A DNA stretch of 64,000 bases from Gammaproteobacteria bacterium (lineage in GTDB: Bacteria; Actinomycetota; Acidimicrobiia; Spongiisociales; UBA4744). Position numbers and translations under genes: made by a program. The notes under the pieces were generated by a model, which worked only from the letters and a program-made list of their open reading frames with translations, ran no database searches and was not told where the DNA came from. Shown piece by piece: positions 35,247-62,961 of the stretch (position 1 is its first letter; every line of letters begins with the position of its first letter). Where the stretch lies: positions 1,314-65,313 of the forward strand of contig JAACED010000002.1 of the NCBI GenBank assembly GCA_011682695.1, given 5' to 3'.

Positions 35247-36149
35247 ATGCCCCTGCAGGATTGGCTGGGACCGACCGGGGTCTGGGGAACGTTTGACCAC
35301 TGGAGTGTCGGCCAAATCGTCGACTATGCGCGCCGGGCCGAAGAACTCGGGTATGACTGCTTCTGGGTCAACGAAAGTCTGGGTCGGGAACCGTTCGCTC
35401 TGCTCGGCCTGCTTGCAGCATCCACCTCCGGCATCCCACTCGGCCTGGGGGTCGCACCGATCCATGCCCGCGACGCCACCGCAGCGCATGCGGGGGCGAG
35501 AACCATCGCCGAGGCCACGGGCGGCCGGTTCATCATGGGCCTGGGAGTCTCACACGCCTCGTCGGCGGCCGCCAGGGGCCATGACTACACGTCCCCGCTC
35601 GCGACACTGGAACGGTACCTGCGCGAATACCGTGAGGCACCCTATCGGGCCGTGCTCCCCGACCATGAGCCGCCACTGGTCGTGGCCGCCCTGCGTCCCC
35701 GCGCTCTGCGGCTGGCCGCACGCACGGCCGACGGCGTCTTTCCCTACCTCGTAACCGCCGAATACGTGGCCCGGGCCCGGTCTGTCATCGACGCGGCTCA
35801 CGACGACCGACTCCACCGGCCGGCACTCATCGTCACCCAAGCGGTGGTCGCCGACGACGACCCGATTCGCGCCCGATCTGCTGCGCGCTCCTACCTGGCG
35901 GGGCATCTCCGCCAACCCAACTACAGGGCAAGCCTCATCCACATGGGATATCGAGAAGCCGACCTCGACGACGGAGGAAGCGACCGGCTTGTGGACGATC
36001 TCGTCGCTCACGGATCACGCCAGGATCTTCAGGCGGCCGTTGCGCGTATGCACGGGGCCGGAGCCGACCACGTGGCCGTCATACCCATATCTCCGCAGGG
36101 TTCTCGAGCCGACTGGGCCGGTCTCGAAGCGGCGAGGCCCGCCTCTTGA
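35247..36149 (+). CDS. LLM-class (probably F420-dependent) oxidoreductase
   Basis: ARRAEELGY..FW, GRFIMGLGVSH, VVAALRPRAL.LAA..ADG, GADHV; ATG 35247 with a GAGGAGG RBS. Confidence 0.85.
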   Translation: MPLQDWLGPTGVWGTFDHWSVGQIVDYARRAEELGYDCFWVNESLGREPFALLGLLAASTSGIPLGLGVAPIHARDATAAHAGARTIAEATGGRFIMGLGVSHASSAAARGHDYTSPLATLERYLREYREAPYRAVLPDHEPPLVVAALRPRALRLAARTADGVFPYLVTAEYVARARSVIDAAHDDRLHRPALIVTQAVVADDDPIRARSAARSYLAGHLRQPNYRASLIHMGYREADLDDGGSDRLVDDLVAHGSRQDLQAAVARMHGAGADHVAVIPISPQGSRADWAGLEAARPAS

Positions 36150-36192
36150 CCACCCTCTCCGGGAGGGACTATCGTAAATACTCGATAATCGA
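36146..36192 (+). promoter_or_regulatory. Sigma70-type promoter plus palindromic operator (site A)
   Basis: TTGACC (36146-51), N18, TATCGT (36170-75), N6, TCGATAATCGA (36182-92). Confidence 0.75.
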
Positions 36193-36237
36193 TGATCTGG
36201 CCAGGTGGGACCGACCGACCTGGCTTTGGAGGCGACG

Positions 36238-36606
36238 GTGGAACTCAAAGCCGTGACGAAAACAGAAGCGCGGGTCTTCAATCTGCCTGGCAGGGATTGG
36301 CTGCATTACATCGGTCCGGAGATCGGCGATGCCAAGAATCTGACCGTCGGCTACTCCGTGTTCCCACCGAATTCGGCCCCCGAGGGGCATGTCCACCCGA
36401 CCCAGGAAGAGGTCATCTACATCGTCTCGGGCAAGGGTGAGCTGGTGACACCCGAAGGCACGGCCTTCCTCGAACCTGGCACCTGCGTGTACATTCCTCC
36501 GGGTCTGCACCATCAGACGGTTTCCCACGGCCCCGGTCCCCTGGAAATGGTCACCTCCTTCTCTCCCCCCGTTGTCCCCGGCTCATACGAGAAAGACGAC
36601 GAATGA
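36238..36606 (+). CDS. Cupin-domain protein
   Basis: EGHVHPTQEEVIY and PGTCVYIPPGLHHQ; GTG 36238 with a GGAGG RBS. Confidence 0.88.
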   Translation: MELKAVTKTEARVFNLPGRDWLHYIGPEIGDAKNLTVGYSVFPPNSAPEGHVHPTQEEVIYIVSGKGELVTPEGTAFLEPGTCVYIPPGLHHQTVSHGPGPLEMVTSFSPPVVPGSYEKDDE

Positions 36607-36637
36607 GCGCCGGCGCACCGCCCAGACCGAGATCCGA

Positions 36638-37504
36638 ATGATGACGACCGCTCCGACCGTCGCCGAGATTGCCGATATCGCCCGCCGGGCTCGTATCCAG
36701 ATTCTCAAAGCGGTCGCCCATGCCAAGGGCGGCCATGTGGGTGGCCCATATTCGGCGGTCGACATGCTGGCCGCCCTCTACTTTCGAGTCCTCGATGTTC
36801 GCCCCGATGAACCGGACTGGCCCGACCGAGACCGGTTCGTACTCTCCAAGGGGCACAGCTCCATCGCCCTGTACACCGTCCTGGCGATGCGGGGCTACTT
36901 CGACATCGAGGAACTGGCGACCTTCGACGCGATCGACTCGAGACTCCAGGGCCATCCGGACATGACGATCACCCCGGGCATCGACATGTCGTCTGGTTCA
37001 CTCGGCCTTGGTTTCGCCGGTGCGCTCGGCATCGCCCTCGGAGCTCGTGCGTTGGGCAAGGACTTCACCACCTATGTGATGCTCGGCGACGGCGAGTGCA
37101 ACGAGGGGATCGTGTGGGAAGGGGCTCATGTGGCCAACCGCTATCACCTCGACAACGTGGTGGCGATCGTCGACCAGAACAACCTCCAGCAGTTCGGCTG
37201 GCGTGGCGACACGGCGACCGAACGCCTCACCCCGTATGTTGGAGACGAGCTGGCGGGCCGCTGGAGAGCATTCGGATGGCACGTCCTGGAGGTGGACGGT
37301 CACGACATTGGAGCGTTCCTGAACACCGTGGAGAAAGCCCAAGCCGTCTCCGAAAGCCCCGTGGTGATCGTGGCCCACACCATCAAGGGCAAAGGGGTCT
37401 CATTCATGGAGGACAATTACAGGTGGCACAGCAGGGTGCCGACCGAGGAGGAGTTCGCCACCGCGATGCAGGAACTCGGCGAGACGAAAGCCGGTGAACG
37501 ATGA
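36638..37504 (+). CDS. Split transketolase, N-terminal (TPP-binding) subunit
   Basis: GHVGGPYS, DRFVLSKGH, LQGHP, SGSLG, GDGECNEG, HTIKGKG, WH. Confidence 0.92.
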   Translation: MMTTAPTVAEIADIARRARIQILKAVAHAKGGHVGGPYSAVDMLAALYFRVLDVRPDEPDWPDRDRFVLSKGHSSIALYTVLAMRGYFDIEELATFDAIDSRLQGHPDMTITPGIDMSSGSLGLGFAGALGIALGARALGKDFTTYVMLGDGECNEGIVWEGAHVANRYHLDNVVAIVDQNNLQQFGWRGDTATERLTPYVGDELAGRWRAFGWHVLEVDGHDIGAFLNTVEKAQAVSESPVVIVAHTIKGKGVSFMEDNYRWHSRVPTEEEFATAMQELGETKAGER

Positions 37505-38454
37505 CCAGTCTCACGCCGGGGAAGGCCTTGAGAGTGGCCTTCGGCGAAACGATCGCCGAACTCGCACGAACCGATCCCCGACTCGTCGTCCTCGACGGCG
37601 ATACCGGGAGTTCCACCCGGACGGACTTGTTCGAAAACGAGCACCCGGAGCGGTTCTTCCAGATGGGGATTACCGAACAGAACATGCTCGGCATGGCAGC
37701 CGGCATGGCAACGCTCGGTTTGATCCCGATCGTCAGCACCTTTGCCTGTTTCATCGTCTCTCGGGCACATGACTCGATTCGGGTCTTGATCGCTCAACCG
37801 AAACTGAACGTCAAACTGATGGGCGGATACGCCGGCCTGCTTGCCGGGATGACCGGCAAGACACACCTCATGTTCGATGACATCTCCATCATGCGGGCAA
37901 TGGCGAACATGACGGTGGTCGCCCCCGCGGACGAAGTCGAGACTCGCCGGGCACTGCCCGCGATCATCGACCATCCCGGTCCCGTGTACTTGCGGCTGAC
38001 CCGCTCCAACTCGCCGGTTCTCTTCGACAACGACTACCGGTTCGAGATCGGCAAGGCAGTCACCCTTCGCGAGGGGTCTGATATCACCGTCTTCTCGACC
38101 GGGGTGCAAAGCGTCCGTGCGTACGAGGCCGCGCAGGTGCTGGCAACCGAAGGCATCGACGTACACCTCGTTCACGTGCCAACGATCAAGCCACTCGACA
38201 TCGATGCCATCGTGAGCGCTGCAAGGAAGACGAACCTGGTGATGACCTCTGAAGAACACACCATCGTGGGCGGCCTTGGTGGGGCGATCGCCGAGACTCT
38301 GGCAGAGTATCACCCGGTACCGATCAAACGACACGGCCTGCAGGACGTGTTCGGAGAGTCCGGACCCAACGAGGATCTCCTCGAGAAGTATGGTATTTCG
38401 GCGTCGAGAACGGCCGAGACGGTGCGTGAGACGGTCCGCTCGCTCAAGAGGTGA
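37501..38454 (+). CDS. Split transketolase, C-terminal subunit
   Basis: GITEQNM, STFACF, THLMFDDIS..RA, GPVYLR, EEH..VGGLG; ATGA overlap. Confidence 0.92.
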   Translation: MTSLTPGKALRVAFGETIAELARTDPRLVVLDGDTGSSTRTDLFENEHPERFFQMGITEQNMLGMAAGMATLGLIPIVSTFACFIVSRAHDSIRVLIAQPKLNVKLMGGYAGLLAGMTGKTHLMFDDISIMRAMANMTVVAPADEVETRRALPAIIDHPGPVYLRLTRSNSPVLFDNDYRFEIGKAVTLREGSDITVFSTGVQSVRAYEAAQVLATEGIDVHLVHVPTIKPLDIDAIVSAARKTNLVMTSEEHTIVGGLGGAIAETLAEYHPVPIKRHGLQDVFGESGPNEDLLEKYGISASRTAETVRETVRSLKR

Positions 38455-38469
38455 CCGGAAGGGCAGTCG

Positions 38470-39297
38470 GTGAAGCCCAGAATGGAACTGGAGAAGGTAG
38501 AGGGAACGCAAGTGAGCCAACTGGATATCTTCAGGCTCGACGGCAAGGTTGCCATCATTCCCGGTGGCAGCGGCGGCATAGGATCCACCCTGGCGCAGGG
38601 GCTCGCGGCAGCCGGAGCCGGCGTCGCAATCGTGGGTCGATCGGCGGAACGCGCCCAGGCCGTGGCCGACAGAGTGCTCAATGCCGGCGGGCAGGCGCTG
38701 GCGATCGCGGCCGATGTCACGCAGAAGGAAGAAGCGGACCGCGCCGTGGCCGAAACCGTAGACCGGTGGGGCCGTCTCGACATCATCGTCAACGCGGTCG
38801 GAGGCGGGGCCGGCAAGGTCCTGTTCGATGCTCAGGACTATCCGATTCGCGAGTGGGACTGGATCTTCGAGCTGAACGTTCGCAGCACCGTGCTCCCCAC
38901 ACAGGCGGCGGTCAAGGCAATGATCGAAGCTGGACACGGCGGCAAGGTCCTGAACATCTCATCGGTCCGGGGCCAACTCGGCATCAATGCCGGCTACTCG
39001 GCATACGTTGCCGCAAAAGGTGCAATCGATTCGCTGACGCGACAGTGGGCTACAGAGTGGGCCCGGCACGGAATCTGCGTGAACGCAATCGCCCCGACTT
39101 TCGTCGACACACCCCAGGTTGCGATGCTGCTGGAAGATCCAGACTTCAAAGCCGGCGTGGTTGGCCGCATCCCACTCCACCGGGTCGGCGAGACGACGGA
39201 TCTGATCGGCGCGAGCTTGTTGTTCTGCTCGGACGCCTCGTCGTTCATCACCGGGCAGATCCTCACTATCGATGGCGGATTGACCGCCACGCAGTAA
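38470..39297 (+). CDS. Short-chain dehydrogenase/reductase (gluconate-5-dehydrogenase/KduD-like)
   Basis: PGGSGGIG, NISS, YVAAK, VNAIAPT, DGG; alternative start GTG 38512. Confidence 0.9.
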   Translation: MKPRMELEKVEGTQVSQLDIFRLDGKVAIIPGGSGGIGSTLAQGLAAAGAGVAIVGRSAERAQAVADRVLNAGGQALAIAADVTQKEEADRAVAETVDRWGRLDIIVNAVGGGAGKVLFDAQDYPIREWDWIFELNVRSTVLPTQAAVKAMIEAGHGGKVLNISSVRGQLGINAGYSAYVAAKGAIDSLTRQWATEWARHGICVNAIAPTFVDTPQVAMLLEDPDFKAGVVGRIPLHRVGETTDLIGASLLFCSDASSFITGQILTIDGGLTATQ

Positions 39298-39324
39298 CCA
39301 CCAATCACAGGGAGAGCCAGAGAA

Positions 39325-40179
39325 ATGCAGAACGTCACACCCAACGTATTCACGGAGACGAAACTCCGCGGATGCAACCCGAGCTATGTGACGACATCGG
39401 ACGGCGTGGTCGTCATCGATACGCCCCAGCTCCCCACCAAGGCGGTCGCCATGCGTGAAGAGGCCGAATCTCACGGCCCGATCCGCTACCTCATCAACAC
39501 AGAACACCACGTCGACCACATCTTTGGCAACTACTACTTCAAAGGCGCAGGCACCGTCGTGCACCACCAAGGTGTCTACGACGATTTCATGGTCGTCGGC
39601 CCCGAATTGGACCCTTTCGCGTACGCCGCGGAGGCGATCCCGACCGATGACCCGGACGGCGAGGCCATCTTCCCCAATCGGGATGAGTACTACTCGGACC
39701 CGAACAAAGGTCAGATCGTCTTCTCCGGGAACCTGACGCTGCGAGTGGGAGACCATACCTTCGAGCTGATCCACACCCCGGGCCACACGCCCGGCCAGGT
39801 GGCGGTACACGTCCCCGAAGAACGAGTCGTGTTCGCCGGCGACACCGTCTTCTGCCAGTGTCAGACGTGGCTGATGGCCTCAAATGTGGACCAGTGGCTG
39901 GACGCCCTCGACACGATCCGAGCACTCGACGTCGATCACATCATTCCGGGCCATGGGCCGGTCACGACCAAGACCTATCTCGATATGCAGCGGGCCGTGC
40001 TGCTCGAGTGGAAGACGGCTGTGGCGGTCGGCATCGCCAAGGGCTGGTCGAAAGAAGAAACGATCGAACGGGTCAACTTCTCGGATCGGTACCCGGTCGA
40101 CATCGGCCAGGAGTACATGATGGACTACATCCAGAACCTCAACGCAGGATCCCTCTACGACAAACTCACCGCAGTCTGA
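39325..40179 (+). CDS. MBL-fold metallo-hydrolase (cyclase-like group)
   Basis: VVIDTP, NTEHHVDHIFGN, HTPGHT, GDT, PGHG. Confidence 0.88.
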   Translation: MQNVTPNVFTETKLRGCNPSYVTTSDGVVVIDTPQLPTKAVAMREEAESHGPIRYLINTEHHVDHIFGNYYFKGAGTVVHHQGVYDDFMVVGPELDPFAYAAEAIPTDDPDGEAIFPNRDEYYSDPNKGQIVFSGNLTLRVGDHTFELIHTPGHTPGQVAVHVPEERVVFAGDTVFCQCQTWLMASNVDQWLDALDTIRALDVDHIIPGHGPVTTKTYLDMQRAVLLEWKTAVAVGIAKGWSKEETIERVNFSDRYPVDIGQEYMMDYIQNLNAGSLYDKLTAV

Positions 40180-40212
40180 GATCGAGCGTTACGACCATTC
40201 GAGGAGTGTGAG

Positions 40213-41439
40213 GTGATCCCACCCTCTCGCGTCGGCGTTCCGTCGGTCCATGTGGCTTGGCGCGCGGTCGTCCCGGCCTTTGCGACAGTGACGGTGAGCG
40301 TCCTTCCGGGCTTCCTGACAGCCGGTCTGGCCGTCCAGATCAGCAAGGACATCGGTCTCGGCCTCACCGGGTTGGGAGTGGTGATCGGGATCTTCTTCGC
40401 CGCCTCTGCGGTGGGATCCCCACTGATGGGGGCGTTGGTCCAACGAGCGGGCTGGGCTCGTGGCTTGCGGTTGTCAAGCTTCATGGCGGCCATCGCGCTG
40501 GCGGGAATCGCCTTCGCTGCGCCAACACCCTTCGCATTCGGCGCGTGGTTCATCCTCGGTGGGTTGGCCGCCTCGCTGGCGCAACCTGCTGCGAATCTCA
40601 CCGTTGCTCGCTGCGTCGGTGCCCGGCGCCGGGGGTTCCTGTTCGGCGCGAAACACGCATCCGTTCCCGCCGCGACGCTCCTCGGTGGCTTGGCAGTGCC
40701 GGTGGTGGCGCTGACGGTCGGATGGGAATGGGCGTTCTGGGGAGGGTCGGCTCTCGCTCTTCTGACCGCGCTTGCGGTTCCGCTCAGATGCGCCGACCAC
40801 GAAGTCGATTCCCCGAGCCGCACCGCCGAGAAGGTCGGACGCCCGAGCACACCCCTCTGGTTGTTGATTGCTCTCGCCATCGCCGGGATGCTCGGCATCG
40901 GCGGGATCGACGCCCTCACCTCGTTCACCGTCACCTACGCCGTGAACACTGGCTTCGATGAGAGCGCCGCCGGACTCTTGCTGGCCGGCGGCAGCCTGGC
41001 CGGCATCGCAGCACGGCTGATCGCCGGATGGTTGATCGACCGAACCGACCGCGCCGACCTCACCGCCGTCGCATCGATGTTGACCGTGGGCGCCCTGGGC
41101 GTGGCCGGTATCGCCATCGGGACACATGCCGGGCTCATCCTCGGCGGTCTGATGGCGTTTGGCGCCGGATGGGGGTGGTCAGGGCTCTTCACCTTCGCGA
41201 TCGTCAAGGACAATCCCGAGGCCCCTGCCACGGCCACCGGAATCACGCAGTCAGGTGTCTTCTTGGGAGCGGCGATAGGCCCTCCCATCTTCGGCTTGGT
41301 GGCAGACGGAATCTCATTTGCCGCTGCCTGGTGGGCAACCGGAGCCGCACTGGTTGCAGCGGCCGCCATCATCCTTTTCGTGCGTAGCCGCCGCCACACG
41401 CACCTAGGGTTGGCGTCGACATGGCGGGCTGCCACATGA
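40213..41439 (+). CDS. MFS transporter
   Basis: About 12 TM segments; motif-A-like GALVQRAGW and GWLIDRTDR. Confidence 0.85.
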   Translation: MIPPSRVGVPSVHVAWRAVVPAFATVTVSVLPGFLTAGLAVQISKDIGLGLTGLGVVIGIFFAASAVGSPLMGALVQRAGWARGLRLSSFMAAIALAGIAFAAPTPFAFGAWFILGGLAASLAQPAANLTVARCVGARRRGFLFGAKHASVPAATLLGGLAVPVVALTVGWEWAFWGGSALALLTALAVPLRCADHEVDSPSRTAEKVGRPSTPLWLLIALAIAGMLGIGGIDALTSFTVTYAVNTGFDESAAGLLLAGGSLAGIAARLIAGWLIDRTDRADLTAVASMLTVGALGVAGIAIGTHAGLILGGLMAFGAGWGWSGLFTFAIVKDNPEAPATATGITQSGVFLGAAIGPPIFGLVADGISFAAAWWATGAALVAAAAIILFVRSRRHTHLGLASTWRAAT

Positions 41440-41601
41440 ACGCAGAGCAGGGATCTCCGACACTTCGCGAGCGACGACTCGCCAAGACATATGGAGAGCC
41501 ACAGAGACTTCCTATCCATTCGTTCCGCAGACGACCGGCTGGAGAACACATGCCGGGCGATCCGGTGACCCGCCGCAATTGTTACCCGATGGGTTCAGAT
41601 C

Positions 41602-42501
41602 ATGAGTGACTACCACCTGCACCTGCATCCTCACTTCCCAACCCCTGATGCGCCACCCATGGGCGTCTATCCACCCGGTTACATCGATCGATACGTGGAC
41701 ACGGCCCTGTCTCGAGGGGTCACCGAACTCGGCTTCACGGAGCATCTCTACCGGTGCGTCGAATCCGCGCCGGTCCTGGGCACATGGTGGAAGCACGACC
41801 CCGACCCCCGGTTGTCGGCCGAGATGGAGCAGATCGTCGCACGCGAACGCAACCTGTCGCTCGACGCGTACGTCGACGTGGTGCTCGATGCGAAACAACG
41901 GGGTCTCCCGGTCAAGCTCGGTCTCGAGGTCGACTTCCAGCCGGGAACCGTTGGTCCCGTGCTGGAGCTGCTCGGAGGCTATCCGTTCGACTTTCTGATC
42001 GGTTCCGTTCATTGGATCGATGCCTGGGCCGTCGACCGCGCATCCGCGGCCCCGGAGTTCGCCAAACGTGGAGCACGACTCGCGTACGAGCAGTACTTCG
42101 AACTCGAAACCGAGCTCGCCGCCTCGGGCATGGTCGACGTCCTGGCCCATGCCGACGTCATCAAGAAGATCGGGATCCGCCCGGAGGGGCCCCTCGACGA
42201 CCTGTACGCCCCGCTGGTGGCTGCGGCGGCCACCGCCGGTGTGGCAGTCGAAGTTTCGAGTGCCGGCCTGCGTAAACCGGTTGCCGAGATCTACCCCGCG
42301 CCGCGCCTCCTCCGGAGTTTCCACACGGCCGGCGTTCCCATCACCCTGGCCAGCGATGCCCACGCCCCCCATGAAGCCGCCTGGGGGCACATCGAGGTCG
42401 TGCAGGCCGCCAGAGCCGCCGGATACACGCATCATTTGCGATTCACCGCCCGCAACGGATACGAGCTGCCCCTACCACATCGAATCGGAGAGAGCCCATG
42501 A
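41602..42501 (+). CDS. PHP-family phosphatase (histidinol-phosphatase HisJ-like)
   Basis: DYHLH, FTEH, GLEVD, GSVH, LAHAD, SDAH. Confidence 0.88.
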   Translation: MSDYHLHLHPHFPTPDAPPMGVYPPGYIDRYVDTALSRGVTELGFTEHLYRCVESAPVLGTWWKHDPDPRLSAEMEQIVARERNLSLDAYVDVVLDAKQRGLPVKLGLEVDFQPGTVGPVLELLGGYPFDFLIGSVHWIDAWAVDRASAAPEFAKRGARLAYEQYFELETELAASGMVDVLAHADVIKKIGIRPEGPLDDLYAPLVAAAATAGVAVEVSSAGLRKPVAEIYPAPRLLRSFHTAGVPITLASDAHAPHEAAWGHIEVVQAARAAGYTHHLRFTARNGYELPLPHRIGESP

Positions 42502-43334: not shown

Positions 43335-43349
43335 CCCAGGCCCCGCCCG

Positions 43350-43377: not shown

Positions 43378-43400
43378 GGTTCTGACTCGTCTCGCGACAA

Positions 43401-45560: not shown

Positions 45561-45574
45561 GTTCTCTCCGATCT

Positions 45575-45622
45575 TCGATAATCGATTACCCGAGACTACG
45601 CGTCTTGCCATCCCAGCGTCAA
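45575..45622 (-). promoter_or_regulatory. Sigma70-type promoter plus palindromic operator (site B)
   Basis: Minus strand: TTGACG (45622-17), N18, TAGTCT (45598-93), N7, TCGATTATCGA (45585-75), then RBS and GTG. Confidence 0.78.
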
Positions 45623-46607: not shown

Positions 46608-46626
46608 GTCACATCCCCAGTCGGTA

Positions 46627-47676: not shown

Positions 47677-47682
47677 CTCCTT

Positions 47683-52152: not shown

Positions 52153-52224
52153 GACGATCCGCCGGTTCGCGCAATCGGTCGATCCGACTCTGGGTTGTCT
52201 GCACCCGCCTTCATCGGACTCCTC

Positions 52225-53103: not shown

Positions 53104-53160
53104 GTTTCTGCTCCCTAATCGCGGCGCATCGGTGATGACCGCATCGTTTCTCTCTTCTTC

Positions 53161-53343
53161 TCAAACGGTTGTGAGCACTCCACCGAGACCGGTCGGCCTC
53201 TCCGGACCCAAGGCCCCCGACGGCGACGTCGGGGCGTCGCTCATCGACGGAGCGATGCGGACGGCCGAGACGACGAGACCGCTCAGCGTGCGCACGGCTT
53301 GCGCAGGCGGTGCCGGGTGTCTCCACTCGTCGGACTCAATCAT
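53161..53343 (-). CDS. Possible 60-aa small protein
   Basis: Start overlaps the gntR 3' end, mostly G/C third positions, fills most of the gap; no recognisable motif. Confidence 0.25.
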   Translation of the reverse strand: MIESDEWRHPAPPAQAVRTLSGLVVSAVRIAPSMSDAPTSPSGALGPERPTGLGGVLTTV

Positions 53344-54046: not shown

Positions 54047-55830
54047 GTCTTGAATAGGTCAGACCCGATAACGTCTCCCTCCTTGTCCCCCTCGGCGAGG
54101 ATCTCCACGACGCCAGTCGAACCGTTGACCCGAAGGCGGTCTCCCGTTCTGATCTTCTCCGTCGCCACCGAGGTCCCGATCACGGCCGGGATGCCAAACT
54201 CACGGGCGAGTACAGCCGGGTGTGACGTGAGACCTCCCGCGTCGGTCACCAGGCCGCTGATCTTTGTGAACAGGGTAACCCAGGCGGGGTTGGTCATCTG
54301 GCAAACCAGGATGTCGCCCTTGTTGACCAAGTCGAACTCGTCGACGCTGAGCACCACCTTGGCGGTCCCCTGGTACACGCCGGGCGATGCGGCCAGACCC
54401 GCGATCTGATCCTCGGCCTCCGGCTGTTCCATGTAGAGCCGATCCGGGAATCCCCAGAGGCCCAGGTAGGGGAACTCGAGCTGAGACTCGGTCGCCGTGC
54501 CGATCCAGTCCTTCGGCCGAACCGTGTAGGCAGCCTCTCGCTCCGCCTTGCGTGTGGCAACGATGCTGCGTGCATCGAAGTTCTCCGGATCGCCCAGGAA
54601 GTACCGCAGCTCGTTGTACTTCAGGTAGATCACGTCGTCTGCTTCGTCGAGGACCCCCATCTTTACCAGATGGCGGCCGATGCACACGAGAACCAACCGC
54701 AAGTGGGCGTTGCTGCCCTGGTCGATATAGAAGTGGTGATCCGGTGTCAGCGGAGCCATCTTCAGGTTGATCTCGTTGGCAGCCTTCATCTTCTCGAGCG
54801 CCTCGCCTTCGAGACCCTCGAGGATCTCGGCCGAGGCCGCGGCGATGTCCTCCGCGAGGTGCTTCACAGTGGACGGGTAGTCATAGTCCGTCTCGAGGTA
54901 TCCCTTGATGACTTCGAGCACCGGCTGGGCCCTCTCGAACCGGGTGGCGAAGATGAACTCGTGACTCCACACGGCGTGCCAGCCGAACTCGCGCTGATAC
55001 GGCTTGAGCCGCTCTGCAATGAACTTCTGGCCCCGCTCGGAAGCCTCGAGGGCCTCGAGCACCTCGGTACCGGTGTCCCTGGAGAACATCTCCGATAGCT
55101 CGGCGTCGCCCTTGATCTCCTCTTTCATCTTCCACAGGGCGCCGATCGAGTCCCAGTTGCGGTCCTCGGCAGAGTTCTGCAGCCGGCCCAAGAGCACCGG
55201 ATCGGCCTCGCCCCGCACTTCTTCCATGACGGCCTGAAGATTGAGCGTCGCCGAGAGCTGAGCAAAGTTCAGCATCCAGTGGATCTTCCAGTGACGATCG
55301 TGGATGTCCATCGCATCTTCGAGGATGGTCGCCCACTCCATGAGCGGGATCTCCTCCCAGCGATCGATGCGATCCTCCAGATAGTCGAAGTTCCTGCGCA
55401 TCTCCGGCACCAACCGGTCCCGCCACCAGTCCGCAAAGTTCTGTCCATACGTCGGCAGGACCGCGCCCAGATAGGCGCCGATCTTGGACGCGTACTCCGG
55501 ATCGTCCTTGGGGACCCGCGGGTAGTAGACGTTGGAGTACTCCATCGATTCGACCTTGAAGTCCGGATCGGCCGGTACCGCCGCGGTGTAGAGATACCCG
55601 TTGACGTTCTTGGCGATCCAGTCCGAAGCGAAGGGGGTGCCGAACCTGCGGAACATGTGGTCACAGGTCAGCCACCATCCTCCGATGTCGAAGTACATCG
55701 GCGACAGCGGCTGCGGGCAGTGCAGGTCGTCGTAGACCCAGAAGAGGCCCTTCTCCCCCTCGTTGTCCCAGTCGATCGGGAAGTCCTCATCGCCCAGGAA
55801 CTGCTTGATGATCTTGCTCTCGTCCGCCAT
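54043..55830 (-). CDS. PEP-utilising-enzyme family protein: substrate-binding domain + C-terminal His-swivel domain, no ATP-grasp (PpsA/RPH-like subunit)
   Basis: C-terminal GLAASPG, ILVCQMTNPAW, GGLTSHPAVLAREFGIPAV; N-terminal FWVYDDLHCPQPLSP...NGYLY; AAGGAGG RBS. Confidence 0.85.
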   Translation of the reverse strand: MADESKIIKQFLGDEDFPIDWDNEGEKGLFWVYDDLHCPQPLSPMYFDIGGWWLTCDHMFRRFGTPFASDWIAKNVNGYLYTAAVPADPDFKVESMEYSNVYYPRVPKDDPEYASKIGAYLGAVLPTYGQNFADWWRDRLVPEMRRNFDYLEDRIDRWEEIPLMEWATILEDAMDIHDRHWKIHWMLNFAQLSATLNLQAVMEEVRGEADPVLLGRLQNSAEDRNWDSIGALWKMKEEIKGDAELSEMFSRDTGTEVLEALEASERGQKFIAERLKPYQREFGWHAVWSHEFIFATRFERAQPVLEVIKGYLETDYDYPSTVKHLAEDIAAASAEILEGLEGEALEKMKAANEINLKMAPLTPDHHFYIDQGSNAHLRLVLVCIGRHLVKMGVLDEADDVIYLKYNELRYFLGDPENFDARSIVATRKAEREAAYTVRPKDWIGTATESQLEFPYLGLWGFPDRLYMEQPEAEDQIAGLAASPGVYQGTAKVVLSVDEFDLVNKGDILVCQMTNPAWVTLFTKISGLVTDAGGLTSHPAVLAREFGIPAVIGTSVATEKIRTGDRLRVNGSTGVVEILAEGDKEGDVIGSDLFKT

Positions 55831-55861
55831 GTTGCCTCCTTTGTTGATCGGCGCCGGTTTC

Positions 55862-56689
55862 CTAGCGACTGATACTCTTGAACCTCTTCATGTTTGCGGT
55901 CATGGCGATCTCCGTGGGCAGACGCTCCATGCTGGATGCACCAAAGAATCCTGCAACACCGGTCGTGTTGGTGAGGACATACGCGGCATCCTCCGGCTCC
56001 GCGATCGGGCCTCCGTGACACAGGACGATGATGTCGTCTCTCACCGCGACCGCTGCGTCGCGGATCCGTTGCACGCGTTCGGCCGCTCCCTCGATCGTCA
56101 GGGCGGTCTCGGCGCCTATCGAGCCCTTCGTGGTCAGCCCCATGTGGGCCACGACGACGTCCGCTCCCGCCTCTGCCATCGCCTGGGCCGAGTCCTCGTC
56201 GAACACATAAGGGGTCGTCAGCAGGCCCTTCTCGTGGGCCAGGCGGATCATCTCGACCTCGAGGTCATAGCCCATCCCGGTCTCTTCGAGGTTCTTGCGG
56301 AATGTTCCGTCGATCAGCCCGACCGTCGGGAAGTTCTGTACACCGGCGAAACCCGTCTCATCCACCAAGTCCAGGAACTTGTCCATCAGCCGGAATGGAT
56401 CGGTGCCGCACACTCCCGCCAGGACCGGCGTGTGCTTTACGATCGGCAGGACCTCGCTGGCCATGTCGATCACGATCGCGTTGGCGTCGCCGTACGGCAT
56501 GAGCCCGGCGAGCGACCCTCTCCCCGCCATGCGATACCGACCGGAGTTGTAGATGATGATGAGATCCGTCCCACCTGCCTCGGCGCACTTCGCCGAGATA
56601 CCGGTGCCGGCTCCCGCTCCGATGATCACGCCACCGTCGTCGAGCGTCTTGCGCAACTTCGCCAGCGCCTCTTGTCCCGTCATGGTCAT
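55862..56689 (-). CDS. TIM-barrel 'phosphoenolpyruvate hydrolase-like' protein (UPF0261/Tm-1 partner)
   Basis: [57 protein letters not shown]. Confidence 0.88.
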
Positions 56690-56712
56690 GGTCGTCCTCC
56701 CCTGTCTCCTTG

Positions 56713-57951
56713 TCAGGCTTGCGGGCGTGATGCCGCCCAGGCTCGATAGTGCTCGTCGAGGCGTCGCGCCATGGCAGTGGCGAACTCCGGGTCGTTCACG
56801 TCGGTGTCCATCTCGATCACCTCGACCGACGGGTCCAGGTGAGCCTTCAGTTCCCTGATCAGCGCCTCGTCGGCGTCCGGGTCATAGAACACGCCCCCCT
56901 CCGTGGCGATCGCCGATACGCCCTTGAGGGGAATGAACACCGTCAGCGGGCCTTTGGCCTCGTTCAGCTTGGCCGCGATCGTGCGTCCCAGCTGTGCACA
57001 CTCTTCCGGAGTCGTCCGCATCAATGTGACCGTAGGGTTGTGCACATAGAGGTTGCGATCCTTGTACTTGTCCGGAACCGTGCTGATCGGTCCGAAGTTG
57101 CACATGTCGAGCGCGCCGAGGGAAACGACTTGCGGTATGCCGAGCCGGCCGGCCATTTCGAGTCGGTCCGGTCCGGCCGAGAGCACGCCACCGACCAGCT
57201 CGTCGACGAGTTCGGTGGTCGTGATATCCAGGGATGCGGTGATGTAGCCGCTCTCCATGAGCGCTTCCATAGACTGCCCCCCGGTCCCTGTGGCATGGAA
57301 GACCAGAACCTCGTAGCCGTGATCCTCCAGCCACTCGCGAGCCGCTGTCACCGACGCCGTCGTCACCCCGAACATGGTTGCTCCAACGAGCGGCCTCCCC
57401 GTATCCGCGGGAACATAGGCCTCGTGGGCTTTCGCCATGCCTGCGATGCCCGCGGCTGCATTCCCCAAGATCCTCGCCGAGATCTCGTTGATGCCCGCGA
57501 TGTCGACCACCGAGTACATCATGGCGATATCGGCCGTGCCGACGTATGGGCGGGTATCGCCCGATGCCATCGTTGAGACCAGCAGCTTCGGCACACCAAT
57601 CGGAAGCAGGCGCATCGAATAGCTGATCAGCGATGAACCGCCCGATCCCCCGAGGCCGAGAATCCCGTTGAGCCGACCTTTCTGATGCAGGTCCTGGACG
57701 ATCACGGCGGCGCCTCGCGCCATGGCCTCGACTGCCGCTCCCCTGTCGCCGGCATTCACCAAATCTTCGAGATCCACTCCGGCGGCGGCTGCCACGTCGG
57801 CACGCGAGTAGTCGGTTGGGTACTCAGGGTCGCCCAGGACTCCTGCGTTGATCACGACGACGTCACAGTTCGCCTCGGCGATCCTGTCTTTCAAGAAGGC
57901 GTACTCGGTTGCCTTCGTATCCAGTGTTCCAAGCAATACGACTGTTGCCAT
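56713..57951 (-). CDS. Tm-1-like ATP-binding domain protein (UPF0261)
   Basis: [51 protein letters not shown]; start ATG 57951. Confidence 0.9.
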
Positions 57952-57953
57952 TG

Positions 57954-58691
57954 TCAATCCTCGTGTTCCTGCTTTTCTCCGTGCGGGCTGACACCCAGGT
58001 ACTGGCGCTGCGCGTCGCGATCGGCGAGCATCCGTTCGGAGGTTGTTTCGAGTGCAATCCTTCCACCAACCATCACTGCAAGACGGTCCGAGACGCTCGT
58101 CGCGACACCCAGGTTCTGTTCGATGAGGAGCAACCCGATTCCGTGCTCCTTCAACCCTTGCAGAATCTCGACGAGCTGATCGACGATGACCGGTGCCAGG
58201 CCTTCCGATGGCTCGTCCATCACCAACAACCGGGGATGGAGCAACAGCGCTCGTGCGATGGCCAGCATCTGCTGCTCACCGCCGGACAGCAGCGAAGCAC
58301 CGAACGCCCGGCGATCCGCCAGGGGTGGGAACAGCTCGTACACACGATCGATGTCCCAAGCGTTGGCACTGCCTTTCCTCTCTACGAGTCTCAAGTGCTC
58401 CGCCACGGTGAGGGAAGGGAACAGCCTCCGGCCCTGCGGCACATACCCGAGGCCCTGAGCGGCAATCCAGTGGGTCTTTCGGTTGGTCAACTCGGCGCCG
58501 TCGAACACGATACTGCCCGAGGCCGCCGGAACGAGTCCCATGATCGCGTTGCAGAGCGTTGTCTTTCCCATGCCGTTTCGCCCGATCAGCGAGATCGGCT
58601 CATCGCCTACCGTCAGGTCGACATCCTGCAGCACATGGCTGCGCCCGTAGTAGGCATTGAGCGACTTGATCTGGAGCAGTGCCTCACTCAT
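57954..58691 (-). CDS. Branched-chain-amino-acid-type ABC transporter ATPase (LivF-like)
   Basis: GRNGMGKT, LSGGEQQ, MDEPSEGL, EQN. Confidence 0.93.
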   Translation of the reverse strand: MSEALLQIKSLNAYYGRSHVLQDVDLTVGDEPISLIGRNGMGKTTLCNAIMGLVPAASGSIVFDGAELTNRKTHWIAAQGLGYVPQGRRLFPSLTVAEHLRLVERKGSANAWDIDRVYELFPPLADRRAFGASLLSGGEQQMLAIARALLLHPRLLVMDEPSEGLAPVIVDQLVEILQGLKEHGIGLLLIEQNLGVATSVSDRLAVMVGGRIALETTSERMLADRDAQRQYLGVSPHGEKQEHED

Positions 58692-59460
58692 GTCCGCGGG
58701 CTCCTAGGTAGATGTCCAGGACGACTTGGTTGTCCTGGATCTCGTCCGGATCGCCCTCGGCGAAAATGGACCCGTTGTGCATCACCGTCACCCAGTCGGC
58801 GGCTTGCAGCGCCACATCCATGTCGTGCTCGATGAGAATCACGGTGATCGTCCCCGGTAATCCTCCCAGAAGGGCCAACAGGTCGGCGCGCTCACTCGGA
58901 GACAACCCTGCCGCAGGCTCGTCGAGCAGGAGCAATCGGGGAGACGATGACAAGGCCATGGCGATCTCCAACTGGCGCTGTTGTCCATGCGACAGTGAGA
59001 CGACACCCGTATCGAGTTCGGATGTCAACCCGACCGACTCGGCCAGTTGTTCCACCGCTGCATGGTCGCGATCGTTCCTGGTCGGCCGCCGGAAGCTGAG
59101 CCGCCTCGGTTTGACGCCTCGGACACCGAGGAAAATGTTGTCGCGAACGCTCAGCCCACCGAAGAGCAGCGACGTCTGGTAGGTGCGGGCCAGACCCATT
59201 CGCGTCCGCTTGTGCGCCGGCAGGTCGGTGATCTTCTTGCCAAAGAGGTAGACGTCGCCCGACGTGGGCAGGTAGTCCCCTGCGATCACGTTGAAGAGCG
59301 TCGTCTTGCCTGCCCCGTTCGGACCGAGGATCGCGCGCCGCTCTCCTTCAGCGATCTCCATCGTTACGTCTCGTACGGCTTGCAGCGCGCCGAAGCGACG
59401 CCCCACGCCCTGCAGTTGCAGGGCGGGGACGTTCGCTTCTGGGCTCGCCTTATCGATCAC
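58684..59460 (-). CDS. ABC transporter ATPase (LivG-like)
   Basis: GPNGAGKT, LSHGQQR, LDEPAAG, IEHDM. Confidence 0.93.
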   Translation of the reverse strand: MIDKASPEANVPALQLQGVGRRFGALQAVRDVTMEIAEGERRAILGPNGAGKTTLFNVIAGDYLPTSGDVYLFGKKITDLPAHKRTRMGLARTYQTSLLFGGLSVRDNIFLGVRGVKPRRLSFRRPTRNDRDHAAVEQLAESVGLTSELDTGVVSLSHGQQRQLEIAMALSSSPRLLLLDEPAAGLSPSERADLLALLGGLPGTITVILIEHDMDVALQAADWVTVMHNGSIFAEGDPDEIQDNQVVLDIYLGARGHE

Positions 59461-60860
59461 GGACAGCTTGGGTACTCTCGAGATGGACCCTGGTAGGTCC
59501 CGTTCGGGAAGAAGAAGTCCTCGGGCTCTCCAAGCGTCTGGTTCACCTGCTCGGCGACCTTGACCAGCTTGTTGTACAGCACGCCATCGGCACGTTCGGT
59601 GACCTCGGTCACGTACTCGTTCGCGATCGCGTTCTGGTTGTGATCCACGCTGACCATACCGGTCGGAGACTCGTACTCGAGGTTGCGCAGCGCCTCACGG
59701 AAGGCCTCCTGCCCACCCGACAAGTCTCCGCCGACCTCTTCGAGTGCCAGCAGGGCCGCCTTGGCATCCACGAAGTAGCCATGTGCGAACAGCGACGGCA
59801 GCGGGAACCGAATCCCGGTCAGCGGGTAGTCCTTGCCTTCCTCCCAGAGCGTCTGATATGCCTTGACCCAGTCCACGTAGACCTGGTCCTGGATATCGTC
59901 GGCGATGGGACCTGCCGCCGGCGTACCGATCACGACCTCTCGGATCCGGGGAGCCTTCGCTCCGAGGATCGACTGGTCGACGGTGATCGAACCACCAACG
60001 AGAGGCAGATCCAGACCGAAGTCCAGCATCTGCGTCAGGAAGTTGATGGCGTCGTTGCCACCCAAGGCGACATACACGGCGTCGAGATCGGAAATGCCCT
60101 GGATCTCGGCGATGATCGAGCTGTAGTCCGTCTCACCGAGCGGGGTCCACAGCTTCTTTGCCACGGTGCCACCCTCCCGACAGAACTCGATCATGAAGCC
60201 CTCGACCTGGCTGTAGGGGAACGAGTAGTCCTCGCCGAGGGTCACCATCTTGCGATAACCCTTTTCGTTGTAGGCATAACTCCCGAGACCCGCCTGCCAC
60301 TGGACACCGTCGGTGCCCCAGCGGAAGAAGTTCCTCGAGCGGATCTCCGGATCCATCGTCGTGTCCTGCGCTGCAGAGGTACCGTTCAACATCGTCTTGT
60401 CCGGTACGCCTTGCATGTAGCGAGCCAGGTTGATCCCCTCATCGCCGGACAGTGGTCCGATGATGATGTCCACGTTGTCTTCTTCGAACAGCTTGCGAGC
60501 TTTGTCACGAGCCACCTCGGCTGTGGCGTCGGTGCTCTCAACGAACACCTCGATCGGGTGACCGGCAACGACCGCGCCTTTGCCCTCACTGTCGCCACCG
60601 AATTCGGCCAGCGCCATGTAGACACCCCGGATGCCATCCTTGCCGGGTTCGACGAAAGGCCCTTCCAGCGTGGCAAGTACACCCAGCCTGATGACCTCAC
60701 CACCCGACGCGGCAGCCGCCGTGGTACTTGTGGTCGTTGCATCCGCAGACGGTGCCGCAGCCGTTGTCTCGGTGGTGCCTCCGCCACAGGCGGTGGCAAT
60801 CAGCGCCAACGCGAGGAACAGGGCTAGCACTGCCCACGATCTTCTCCAGTTCTGACTCAT
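59457..60860 (-). CDS. ABC transporter substrate-binding lipoprotein (type I, LivK/amide/aromatic-type)
   Basis: ATG 60860; lipobox LIATAC, Thr/Ala-rich linker, IIIGPLSG..G, LGEDYSF, P.GETDYS. Confidence 0.88.
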   Translation of the reverse strand: MSQNWRRSWAVLALFLALALIATACGGGTTETTAAAPSADATTTSTTAAAASGGEVIRLGVLATLEGPFVEPGKDGIRGVYMALAEFGGDSEGKGAVVAGHPIEVFVESTDATAEVARDKARKLFEEDNVDIIIGPLSGDEGINLARYMQGVPDKTMLNGTSAAQDTTMDPEIRSRNFFRWGTDGVQWQAGLGSYAYNEKGYRKMVTLGEDYSFPYSQVEGFMIEFCREGGTVAKKLWTPLGETDYSSIIAEIQGISDLDAVYVALGGNDAINFLTQMLDFGLDLPLVGGSITVDQSILGAKAPRIREVVIGTPAAGPIADDIQDQVYVDWVKAYQTLWEEGKDYPLTGIRFPLPSLFAHGYFVDAKAALLALEEVGGDLSGGQEAFREALRNLEYESPTGMVSVDHNQNAIANEYVTEVTERADGVLYNKLVKVAEQVNQTLGEPEDFFFPNGTYQGPSREYPSCP

Positions 60861-60930
60861 CCGACTCTCCCTCCTTCGGGTCGTCCCGTCACGGTCTTCC
60901 CTTGGTGTTGTCCCGCTTATGTCTTCGCAG

Positions 60931-61959
60931 TTATGAAAGCTCTGATTCCACGGTCTCCTCTCCCTCCGAAAGCACGGCCTCCCCCTTGAGCGGGGTACGT
61001 CGCAGCGCTCGGCGAACACGGGCAGGAATCCCCAACAGCCCGTTGGGCGAGAGGATCAGCAACGCGACAAAGACCAGCCCGATGATTGTGTTGAACCGTT
61101 CACGGGTGAAGAACTCGGCCGTGAACGTATCTGCCACGTTGAAGAAGACCGCACCGAGGAATGCCCCCTCTGCGTACGCGATGCCTCCAACGACCGCAAC
61201 GATCAGAATGTCGATGTTGCGCGTCAGGTCGACCACCGATGGGGACATGTTGACCCGGTGCCAAACCATCAGGATGCCACCCAGCCCGGCGATGAAACCT
61301 GCGAAGCCGAACGCCAGCACCTTGTGCAGACCCACCCAGTACCCGAGCGAGCGCATCCGCCGAGGGTTGTCCCGTATCCCCTGCAAGGCCAGACCGAACG
61401 GCGCCCGGCCCACGTAGCGCACGAGTGCATACACGAAAGCGGCGATGACCAGTGAGAAGTAGTAGAAGGAGTTCGGGGACTGCAGGTCGAGTGGCCCGAT
61501 CTTCGGAGGCGGCACGGGACCGATGCCCCGATGACAGTTGAAGATCTCACAGTTCTGGTTCGCGAAGAAGAACACCAGCATCCCCAGGGCGAGAGTGATC
61601 ATCAGCAGATAGATCCCCTCGGTGCGCACGGAGATGAGTCCGAACAGCGCCCCGGCGAGCGTCGCAACCAGGACCCCGAGGACGACCCCGAGCAGCCAGC
61701 TACCCGTCTCGTGGAAACCGACGTACGCCACCGCGTAGCCGGCGAGCCCCGCAGTGGCCAGCTGGGCGAAGGAGATCATCCCGCCGAACTTGACGAGGAA
61801 GATCAGACTTAATGCGATGATGCCCATCCACAGCGACTTGCTGGCGATCTCCGTCACCCAGAACTCGGACACGAGCACCGGGAGCAGGACCAGGAACACC
61901 GCCAGAACCGCTCCGACGGCGACTCTCCAGTCCTTCAGCGCGGCAACGATCCGATCCAT
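60931..61959 (-). CDS. ABC permease (LivM-like)
   Basis: GMISFAQ, EGIY..MITLA, PFG.ALQGIRDN..R..SLG, GG.....GA.LG. Confidence 0.92.
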   Translation of the reverse strand: MDRIVAALKDWRVAVGAVLAVFLVLLPVLVSEFWVTEIASKSLWMGIIALSLIFLVKFGGMISFAQLATAGLAGYAVAYVGFHETGSWLLGVVLGVLVATLAGALFGLISVRTEGIYLLMITLALGMLVFFFANQNCEIFNCHRGIGPVPPPKIGPLDLQSPNSFYYFSLVIAAFVYALVRYVGRAPFGLALQGIRDNPRRMRSLGYWVGLHKVLAFGFAGFIAGLGGILMVWHRVNMSPSVVDLTRNIDILIVAVVGGIAYAEGAFLGAVFFNVADTFTAEFFTRERFNTIIGLVFVALLILSPNGLLGIPARVRRALRRTPLKGEAVLSEGEETVESELS

Positions 61960-61966
61960 GATCTGG

Positions 61967-62842
61967 CTAGAACCCCTCTCGTGCTTCCCGGCCGAACAGG
62001 CCCCGCGGCCGAAGTGCCAGGACGAGGGTCATCAGCGCAAACGTGACCAGAGGCGCGTAGGTGGAGATGTACGCCAGGCTGTACTGGCTGGCCATGCCCA
62101 CCAACAGGGCGCCCACTGCTGCGCCACCGAGGCTGCCCATGCCGCCGACGATGACCACGACCAGCGACGCCACGAGGAACCGGGCATCTTCTCCGGGAAT
62201 GATGGAGAACGCCGTCCCCCCGATCACCCCGGCGAAGCCTGCCAGGAATGCTCCGAGGGCGAATACGACGACGAACACCCGGGCGACGTTGACACCGAGG
62301 GCCGAAAGCATGTCCCGGTCGTCGATACCTGCTCGAATCGTCATGCCGAGCTTGGTTTTGGACAGGAGAAGCCACAGGAGCACGCCGAGCACGGTGGCGA
62401 TCACGACCAGGAAGAGCCGATAGGTGGGATAGCGAATTGCGAGGAGGGGGATCAGCGTGGCGCCTCTGAGGAAGTCGGGGTACGGGAACTGGTAGGCGAA
62501 TCCTCCGTAGCGAGCGAGCATCTGGTCGGCGATGACGATCGAGATTCCAATGGTGATCATCGCCTGTCGAAGATCCTCCCCCTGCATCCAACTGAAGATC
62601 CCCACCTGCAAAAGGATGCCCAGCAGCATCATTGCGAACGCCCCGACGATGAGCCCCAGCCACCAGTTGCCGGTGGCGTCGCCGACCTCCCAACCCAGGT
62701 AGGCGCCGGCGAGATAGAGCGAACCGTGGGCCAGATTGACGATGCGCATGACACCGAAGATGAGGCTGAAGCCACTCGCCACGATGAAGTAAAGGGCGGC
62801 GAGCGTGATGCCATTGAAAGAAGAGATCAGAAACTTGTCCAC
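61967..62842 (-). CDS. ABC permease (LivH-like)
   Basis: ASGFSLIFGVMRIVNLAHG, G...RA..D...M...G, VVVIVGGMGS..GA. Confidence 0.93.
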   Translation of the reverse strand: MDKFLISSFNGITLAALYFIVASGFSLIFGVMRIVNLAHGSLYLAGAYLGWEVGDATGNWWLGLIVGAFAMMLLGILLQVGIFSWMQGEDLRQAMITIGISIVIADQMLARYGGFAYQFPYPDFLRGATLIPLLAIRYPTYRLFLVVIATVLGVLLWLLLSKTKLGMTIRAGIDDRDMLSALGVNVARVFVVVFALGAFLAGFAGVIGGTAFSIIPGEDARFLVASLVVVIVGGMGSLGGAAVGALLVGMASQYSLAYISTYAPLVTFALMTLVLALRPRGLFGREAREGF

Positions 62843-62911
62843 GACCCCTCCCGAGCGTGTCGGCTCTGCATTCCGCGGCCTACGTGCATTTCGGTATCGA
62901 ATCCTCTATCT

Positions 62912-62961
62912 TCGATAATCGATTAAATGAGAGCATACGGACTCACCTGCATCCCCGTCAA
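62912..62961 (-). promoter_or_regulatory. Sigma70-type promoter plus palindromic operator (site C)
   Basis: Minus strand: TTGACG (62961-56), N18, TATGCT (62937-32), N9, TCGATTATCGA (62922-12). The 18-mer ATCTTCGATAATCGATTA is identical to site B. Confidence 0.78.

Follow-up and report, generated by a model that had tools for sequence, protein, structure and literature searches.

What regulates the genes that lie behind three copies of one palindrome in a 64-kb stretch of bacterial DNA, and is the regulator encoded among those genes? The stretch (64,000 nucleotides of contig JAACED010000002.1, derived from a marine-sediment metagenome; hereafter the window) carries the 11-bp odd palindrome TCGATAATCGA (TCGATWATCGA) ahead of three groups of genes, designated units A, B, and C (Table 1). 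A preliminary description of the window had placed the copies at 36182, 45575, and 62912, each 6, 7, or 9 nt after a TTGAC[C/G]-N18-TAnnnT promoter that points into the adjacent operon, and had proposed that they are bound by the GntR/FCD protein encoded in the same region. The analysis presented here makes it highly likely that the motif is a protein operator specific to this gene cluster; that it is the operator of a local repressor regulon, bound by the cluster-encoded GntR protein, is probable from the comparisons set out below. Direct computation gave the sites and their placement relative to promoter-like hexamers, showed that orthologous operons conserve them, and linked them statistically to the GntR gene.

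Exact matches to TCGATWATCGA occur at the three positions described and nowhere else in the window, against 0.02 expected, and three or more matches arose in 0 of 100 shuffles of the sequence. When up to two mismatches are allowed, the 14 matches obtained are at background (12.4 expected), so the signal lies in the three exact copies. The pattern TTGACS-N18-TANNNT, which was derived from the three sites themselves after their discovery, has just three matches on both strands of the 64 kb (0.13 expected); each adjoins a palindrome and points into the neighboring genes, and the gap between the second hexamer and the palindrome core is the one originally reported at each site (6 nt at A, 7 nt at B, and 9 nt at C). 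Promoters A, B, and C are consensus matches only: a generic σ70 scan called A and C and passed over B, whose −10 element (TAGTCT) falls below threshold. The 18-mer that the preliminary description had found common to sites B (45571-45588) and C (62908-62925) is present as stated (ATCTTCGATAATCGATTA), and in the direction of transcription all three sites read TCGATWATCGAWGAT(C/A).

To place these sites in a wider context, two sets of related loci, together about 1.03 Mb, were compared with the window: 9 loci from metagenome-assembled genomes (MAGs), mostly labeled Chloroflexota or Chloroflexia and fetched through the PPDK-fusion protein of unit B (56-64% identity), and 80 metagenome loci fetched through a 595-aa protein of unit C, here called PEPut595 (64-88% identity). 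In these relatives, units A, B, and C are represented by a single gene cluster whose arrangement varies. Its core comprises the 595-aa protein, GntR, a 292-aa protein, XDH, a cyclase, ADH, and the PPDK fusion; attached to the core are SDR-MBL(-PHP-LLM), transketolase genes, the Tm-1/PEP-hydrolase pair, and the Liv transporter. Since the relatives carry these genes as one compact cluster, the three promoters belong to one local regulon and not to dispersed loci. Two parts of the preliminary description consequently fall: the promoters had been called dispersed, while the units are contiguous in the window, and annotation alone had been thought unable to connect the units, which synteny in relatives already links.

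The motif is kept with the cluster. The exact W-centered form has 46 copies in the de-duplicated loci of the relatives, 0 of them inside mapped genes, and none was found in 71 unrelated loci; both this comparison and the window scan put it far above background. The copies lie upstream of operon-first genes, namely those for PEPut595, Tm-1, LivH, SDR, and the PPDK fusion, so that conservation at the heads of orthologous operons extends over many related loci. The LivH site is 73 nt upstream of its gene in one relative (L111) and 70 nt in the window; the SDR gene is preceded by the motif in L003, L005, L008, L084, L128, and L130, and PPDK-fusion genes with a promoter of their own carry it in L087, L096, and L008.

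The relatives also show how far the site extends. Over 60 oriented sites the flanks are symmetric, A/T/A at −4/−3/−1 being mirrored by T/A/T at +11/+13/+14, which enlarges the core to a 19-bp palindrome, ATnATCGATnATCGATnAT, of a kind suited to a dimeric helix-turn-helix (HTH) protein. Many sites have an extra TCGA box at a 7-nt offset (e.g., TCGACAATCGATTATCGA). The 11-bp palindrome first put forward as the operator thus stands as the core, whereas the site as a whole is wider, at 19 bp and often with the additional box. When 14 upstream regions (250-470 nt; 33% mean identity) were aligned, the block ATCGATTATCGA was invariant, and otherwise just five scattered columns were, three of them at the ribosome-binding site or start codon.

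Promoter-like hexamers accompany the operator in the relatives as they do in the window. Of 58 oriented sites, 27 are preceded by TTGAC at a distance of up to 50 nt; 22 of these 27 have TAnnnT 16-18 nt beyond it, with a further 5-16 nt, mostly 6-9, to the start of the core. At the other five, four of which are SDR promoters, TTGAC lies 22-31 nt upstream of the core, which places the core at or over the −10 region. On this comparison, the predicted promoter-operator architecture is a conserved feature of the cluster.

The proposed binding protein has an N-terminal winged-helix GntR DNA-binding domain (PF00392, 55.3 bits against a cut-off of 27, residues 18-79) and an all-helical C-terminal FCD domain of the effector-binding and dimerization type (PF07729, 97.2 bits against a cut-off of 24.3, residues 89-211); with both domains above cut-off, it is a member of the GntR/FCD subfamily, and its best relatives in the PDB are FCD-type GntR regulators. 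It had been described as the only regulator in the window, and in line with this no other DNA-binding regulator was found among the roughly 50 open reading frames (ORFs) scanned, or among the leftover small ORFs of the window, which were read by eye. No other conserved regulator was found in the clusters of the relatives either. The GntR gene overlaps the upstream 595-aa gene by 4 nt, and co-transcription from promoter C is therefore expected. Its orthologs (45-72% identity) directly follow PEPut595 in most loci and are sometimes located divergently upstream. Among de-duplicated loci in which the operon head and the GntR position could both be judged, the motif (up to one mismatch, within 450 nt upstream of the operon head) is present in 37 of 46 GntR-positive loci vs. 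3 of 11 GntR-negative ones (Fisher p = 0.0014, uncorrected for phylogeny), and in one of those three (L134) the site adjoins the start codon and may be coding.

The DNA-reading part of the protein is conserved as closely as its presumed target. The HTH segment VETRxARxLGTSQAPVREAL is nearly invariant among orthologs with about 50% overall identity, an invariance that matches that of the operator. At the positions that align with Arg35 and Arg45, the two guanine-reading arginines of E. coli FadR, the GntR protein has Thr and Gln. Variants of the helix (ETR vs. ETQ, GTSQA vs. GVSQS) and variants of the operator, compared by eye, gave no clear covariation. Taken together, gene context and co-occurrence support the earlier reading of the GntR protein as the putative binder of the shared operator.

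How does this operator compare with those of known regulators? The canonical operator of the FadR subfamily is given as TNGTNNNACNA (PMC11472048) or as TKGT/ACMA boxes spaced 3 nt apart (PMC4494728). The operators of FadR, LldR, PdhR, DgoR, and GlcC are, like the motif described here, 11-bp odd palindromes built of 4 + 3 + 4 bases with an A/T-rich center and A/T-rich flanks. Canonical operators are bound by dimers, and the motif shares T1, G3, C9, and A11 with TNGTNNNACNA; it differs in having A/T instead of T/A at positions 4/8, which turns GT...AC into GA...TC, and in having C/G at positions 2/10. The candidate operator TCGATNATCGA agrees with TNGTNNNACNA in its 11-bp geometry and at 6 of the 8 positions that the latter specifies, and it departs from the subfamily consensus at the remainder. 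No canonical TNGTNNNACNA site was found at the cluster promoters, and the window as a whole has 5 matches to it vs. 8.1 expected.

A survey of the GntR family published in 2015 offers a possible explanation for this departure. Where HTH position 28 is arginine, a G/C pair in the TKGT/ACMA boxes is strongly preferred, position 28 being FadR residue 35 in the numbering of the survey (position 0 is Ser7), and bonding of the recognition-helix Arg to G is the main specific contact (PMC4494728). Replacement by Thr and Gln, as proposed above for the GntR protein, would fit a non-canonical GA/TC operator. The family also has weaker extra half-sites 7-12 nt from the center, which the extra TCGA boxes at 7-nt offset resemble (PMC4494728). 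BioR and NanR provide FadR-subfamily precedent for sites that lack a GT/AC core (cited in PMC4494728), although their sites (TTATMKATAA for BioR and TGGTATAW direct repeats for NanR) are unlike the present motif in sequence and symmetry, and neither protein is orthologous to the GntR protein. A literature search of limited scope found no description of the motif as an operator, the matches to it being unrelated oligonucleotides, and it is absent from the portion of the survey's supplementary site tables that was available to us. PhnR (TIGR03338), a regulator of phosphonate utilization and the best named model for the GntR protein, was rejected as its identity, with a score of 137.8 bits against a cut-off of 271.5 and an unrelated gene context.

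From these results we infer the binder, repression, the positions of transcription start, and the effector, which together make up the following mechanism. A dimer of the GntR/FCD protein would bind the 19-bp ATnATCGATnATCGATnAT, which starts 5-16 nt after the −10 hexamer or, at some SDR promoters of the relatives, overlaps it; the bound dimer would keep RNA polymerase from binding, from forming an open complex, or from escaping the promoter at A, B, and C. With its gene located within unit C, the GntR protein would also repress itself and so limit its own synthesis. A substrate or intermediate of the pathway would then bind the FCD domain and release GntR from the DNA, switching on the genes for uptake (the Liv-type ABC and MFS transporters) and for catabolism together. 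Cluster-embedded GntR repressors with repeated operators are common, and the principle is not new.

The closest described parallel is DipR of Alcaligenes faecalis, which represses the dipicolinate (dip) cluster: it is likewise a FadR-subfamily regulator encoded within its catabolic cluster, and its short palindromic box is repeated at several cluster promoters, where it overlaps the promoter or transcription start site, as proposed here (PMC11472048). DipR is autoregulated and is released by the pathway substrate, and its motif traced the cluster across genomes (PMC11472048). The two systems differ in pathway and phylum, the closest relatives of the present cluster being uncultured and mostly Chloroflexota MAGs; in the box itself, GTATAC for DipR and TCGAT-N-ATCGA inside a 19-bp palindrome here (PMC11472048); and in the kind of evidence, since DipR was proven by electrophoretic mobility shift assay, footprinting, rapid amplification of 5′ cDNA ends, and knockout, while the evidence presented here is computational (PMC11472048).

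Several observations weigh against the GntR protein as the binder and repressor. The operator lacks the GT/AC dinucleotides typical of most GntR-family sites; 9 of the 46 GntR-positive loci lack a site in the 450 nt upstream of the operon head; in two independent loci, L113 and L137, the motif is present and the stretch of locus covered contains no GntR gene; and the GntR-negative, motif-negative loci represent only about four to five clades, which makes the effective sample for the association small. In addition, the sequence runs that match the window are DNA only, from marine sediment, and the motif scans covered the 64-kb window and the loci of the relatives. The missing family hallmark (PMC4494728) and the two loci L113 and L137 are what would be expected if the operator of the cluster were genuine but bound by another transcription factor encoded outside the window, with GntR recognizing something else. 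We consider this unlikely: GntR is the sole regulator gene conserved in the cluster, the presence of the motif tracks that of the GntR gene, and neither an alternative conserved motif nor a canonical GntR site is found at the promoters. The conserved Thr and Gln at the positions of FadR Arg35 and Arg45 would, moreover, fit a non-canonical site. A different doubt concerns the sign of regulation. FadR-subfamily proteins can activate, as FadR does at fabA, and a second site, 93-123 bp further upstream and without a recognizable −35 element beside it, occurs in many relatives, both of which would be compatible with a GntR protein that acts at the site as an activator or dual regulator instead of a plain repressor. 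This is improbable, however, because wherever hexamers can be recognized the site lies downstream of the −10 element or over it (several SDR promoters) and never at −40 to −60, and local catabolic regulators of the FadR type, such as DipR, repress (PMC11472048).

Two further readings dispense with a DNA-binding protein altogether. The palindrome could act at the RNA level, as a hairpin in the 5′ untranslated region (TCGA/TCGA stem, 3-nt loop) or as part of a leader or riboswitch: sites A, B, and C would be transcribed if the predicted promoters are correct, and the sequence is self-complementary. The window has no Rfam match at gathering score, though, and sub-threshold matches near the sites are at chance level; the leaders of relatives are otherwise unconserved; at several SDR promoters the site overlaps the −10 element and so would not be fully transcribed; what is conserved is the sequence, including the symmetric flanks, and not the pairing; and the site serves divergent gene pairs (L008 9911, L111). 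We accordingly regard an RNA-level function as very improbable. The view that the sites arose by chance, or are what is left of a dispersed repeat or mobile element, draws on the repeat families that lie near sites B and C (45830-46063 and 63058-63215), but neither repeat includes the operator or the hexamers, other copies of the repeats have no motif, and the motif lies outside all repeats. Between the flanks of the three sites, similarity is confined to the −35, −10, and operator sequences, and the motif is kept across loci with 45-88% protein identity in which these repeats are absent; this explanation is effectively refuted.

The features on which a GntR-controlled local regulon is predicated are collected in Table 1. 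The gene content previously named for units A, B, and C was reproduced by Pfam, and the gene order of unit A also stands in the annotation of the source scaffold. The units are contiguous and form two convergent arrays, promoter B being internal and 560 nt downstream of unit C. From LivH through GntR, the genes of unit C overlap or are separated by gaps of at most about 30 nt; the 233-nt gap that follows GntR on the minus strand yielded no terminator-like or promoter-like site.

Table 1. Predicted operators, promoter-like sites, regulator gene, and gene units in the window (positions are those of the window; start codons of the cupin and PPDK-like fusion genes are as refined in this analysis).
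Feature	Position	Strand	Description
Operator A	36178..36196 (core 36182-36192)	+	ATACTCGATAATCGATGAT; exact core; 1 mismatch to the 19-bp consensus ATnATCGATnATCGATnAT; 46 nt upstream of the cupin start codon GTG 36238
Promoter-like site A	36146..36175	+	TTGACC 36146-36151, N18, TATCGT 36170-36175; 6 nt to core
Operator B	45571..45589 (core 45575-45585)	-	Reads TCGATTATCGAAGATC in the direction of transcription; exact core; 15 nt upstream of GTG 45560, a start codon with the ribosome-binding site GGAGAG before it
Promoter-like site B	45593..45622	-	TTGACG 45622-45617, N18, TAGTCT 45598-45593; 7 nt to core
Operator C	62908..62926 (core 62912-62922)	-	Exact core; 70 nt upstream of the LivH-like start codon GTG 62842
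Promoter-like site C	62932..62961	-	TTGACG 62961-62956, N18, TATGCT 62937-62932; 9 nt to core
GntR/FCD (FadR-subfamily) regulator	53336..54046	-	Candidate repressor; both domains by Pfam
Unit A	36238..43334	+	Cupin, split transketolase (N and C halves), SDR, metallo-beta-lactamase-fold hydrolase, MFS transporter, PHP-domain protein, luciferase-like monooxygenase (Pfam)
Unit B	43401..45560	-	719-aa protein with PPDK nucleotide-binding domain and phospho-His swivel domain (Pfam, NCBIfam, PDB)
Unit C, first genes (position is that of the whole unit)	46122..62842	-	LivH, LivM, substrate-binding protein, two ABC ATPases, UPF0261/Tm-1-like protein, PEP-hydrolase-like protein (Pfam)
Unit C, continued	46122..62842	-	595-aa protein with C-terminal swivel domain (PEPut595), GntR, 292-aa protein of no assigned function
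Unit C, remainder	46122..62842	-	XDH-family FAD, 2Fe-2S, and Mo subunits, cyclase-family hydrolase, Zn-ADH, low-MW phosphatase

In the unit B protein, residues ~134-482 match PPDK in a PDB search, and the C-terminal ~240 aa, which are without domain assignment, replace the PEP/pyruvate TIM barrel. The C-terminal ~200 residues of PEPut595 resemble rifampicin phosphotransferase and PEP synthase. The 292-aa protein (52225-53103, minus strand) is a well-supported ORF with no match in Pfam or NCBIfam, and it is among the most conserved genes of the cluster (66-79% identity in relatives). Outside the cluster, a well-supported ORF of 696 aa (4048-6138, plus strand) has no Pfam match. Divergent from unit C is a gene (63273-64000, plus strand) that runs off the window and by eye resembles the E1 alpha subunit of 2-oxoacid dehydrogenases; site C is 350 nt from its start.

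The number and spacing of operators vary among the relatives. Two operators 93-123 bp apart occur upstream of PEPut595 in L105 (630/752), L112 (368/487), L159 (318/441), L113 (5519/5639), L138 (2401/2518), L142 (2448/2564), L148 (622/715), and L108 (6002/6106). In these loci the downstream copy follows TTGAC-N16-18-TAnnnT; the upstream copy is often G/C-centered, with TATCA/TGG flanks and no recognizable −35 element. Such pairs could serve DNA looping or a second, divergent promoter. The window, unlike these relatives, has single sites only. In many relatives the operator is located 215-345 nt upstream of PEPut595 (e.g., L083 1883-2225, L115 9075-9424, L157 2934-3259), and no conserved small ORF was found between the two in the relatives, a 95-aa ORF that is ABM-like by eye being present there in L009 and L143 only. 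A long 5′ leader is thus implied in those relatives, and no conserved sequence was found in the leaders beyond the operator and the ribosome-binding site.

Forms of the palindrome with G or C at the center, TCGAT[G/C]ATCGA, also occur inside cluster genes, mostly at the 3′ end of the cyclase gene (window 47702-47712; also L006 14547, L092 17814, L113 13391, L146 10579, and L155 18020) and also in Tm-1 and GntR orthologs. The cyclase-end copy holds the same position across orthologs and in frame encodes Ser-Met-Ile/Val-Asp; as it recurs in orthologs and reads in frame, it is not an operator, and it would be a false positive in any scan with a free central base. Two near-matches in the window were rejected as sites: TCGATCATCGA at 47702, which is this copy in the 3′ end of the cyclase gene, where orthologs have near-identical matches at the same position, and TCGCTCATCGA at 53237, which has no A/T flanks.

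The repeats mentioned above belong to two families. Family 1 is G+C-rich, dispersed, and intergenic (20733-21040, 23631-23832, and 45830-46063), with units such as CGTTTCCTCCCCCGGCGAGGGCTCTGGCGAGCGTTGGGGGAGGTG. The third of these copies occupies a large part of the 560 nt that separate the phosphatase gene from promoter B and includes a 29-nt unit repeated three times in tandem (45862-45950); it may be an insertion that parted the PPDK-fusion gene from unit C and gave it a promoter of its own. Family 2 has copies at 34441-34663 and 63058-63215, which are 92% identical over 87 nt and differ by a 62-nt insert in the 34-kb copy. They end about 55 nt upstream of plus-strand start codons, those of a cupin gene at 34712 and of the gene at 63273, and the 63-kb copy folds into a long hairpin (minimum free energy −114.7 kcal/mol, z = −3.7). 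Family 2 gave no Rfam match and was absent from all loci of the relatives; it could be a leader RNA or a small mobile element.

The genes themselves offer clues to what the regulon is for. The UPF0261/Tm-1-like protein (56713-57957, minus strand) scores 245 bits against PDB 9MPY, deposited as a UPF0261 domain-containing protein. This entry is MarK, the first UPF0261 member with a shown activity: it uses ATP to phosphorylate phenolic ketones, which are also the substrates of the heterodimeric dikinases AcvAB and HpeHI (PMC12624787). Between them, PEPut595 and the PPDK-like fusion resemble the halves of a dikinase of the AcvAB/HpeHI type. A PEP-hydrolase-like TIM-barrel gene follows the UPF0261/Tm-1-like gene; plant Tm-1-like proteins contain this pair as a fusion. 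In L093, PEPut595 is directly followed by a separate 311-aa protein (3405-4340) that resembles by eye the N-terminal ATP-binding region of PPDK, and a gene that is transaldolase-like by eye belongs to the cluster of several loci with or without the split transketolase (L113 4336-5430, L120 4394-5524, L126 8818-9918); these hints suggest that PEPut595 may have a working partner of the PPDK ATP-binding type and that the pathway may include cleavage of a ketose-like intermediate. The best named model for the Mo subunit is the alpha subunit of 4-hydroxybenzoyl-CoA reductase, with a score far below cut-off. The gene content as a whole suggests, speculatively, the phosphorylation-dependent catabolism of a hydroxylated aromatic or heteroaromatic compound.

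Regulator and pathway can be brought together in one reading, which we offer tentatively as a possibility worth stating: the GntR proteins of this cluster would form an uncatalogued specificity class of the FadR subfamily, and their operator would mark an uncharacterized catabolic pathway. On the side of the regulator, the TCGA boxes would be read by a helix in which Thr and Gln replace two guanine-contacting arginines. On the side of the pathway, a MarK-like UPF0261 kinase and a two-part dikinase resembling PPDK and rifampicin phosphotransferase would provide two ATP-dependent phosphotransfer systems beside an XDH-family molybdoenzyme, suggesting that a phenolic or heteroaromatic compound is broken down via phosphorylation.

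The non-canonical operator is the most distinctive feature of the system, and it adds a data point on the divergence of FadR-type recognition helices from the GT/AC rule. The effector of the GntR protein is likely the substrate or an early intermediate of the pathway, so that effector screening of the purified protein would be a cheap route to the pathway and possibly to a biosensor. The 19-bp palindrome and the GntR ortholog group together provide a precise, portable signature of a widespread cluster of uncharacterized function in uncultured Chloroflexota-like and other soil and sediment bacteria, one that shows which transporters and enzymes switch together; if the combined reading of regulator and pathway is true, the operator marks that pathway across many uncultured soil and sediment bacteria.

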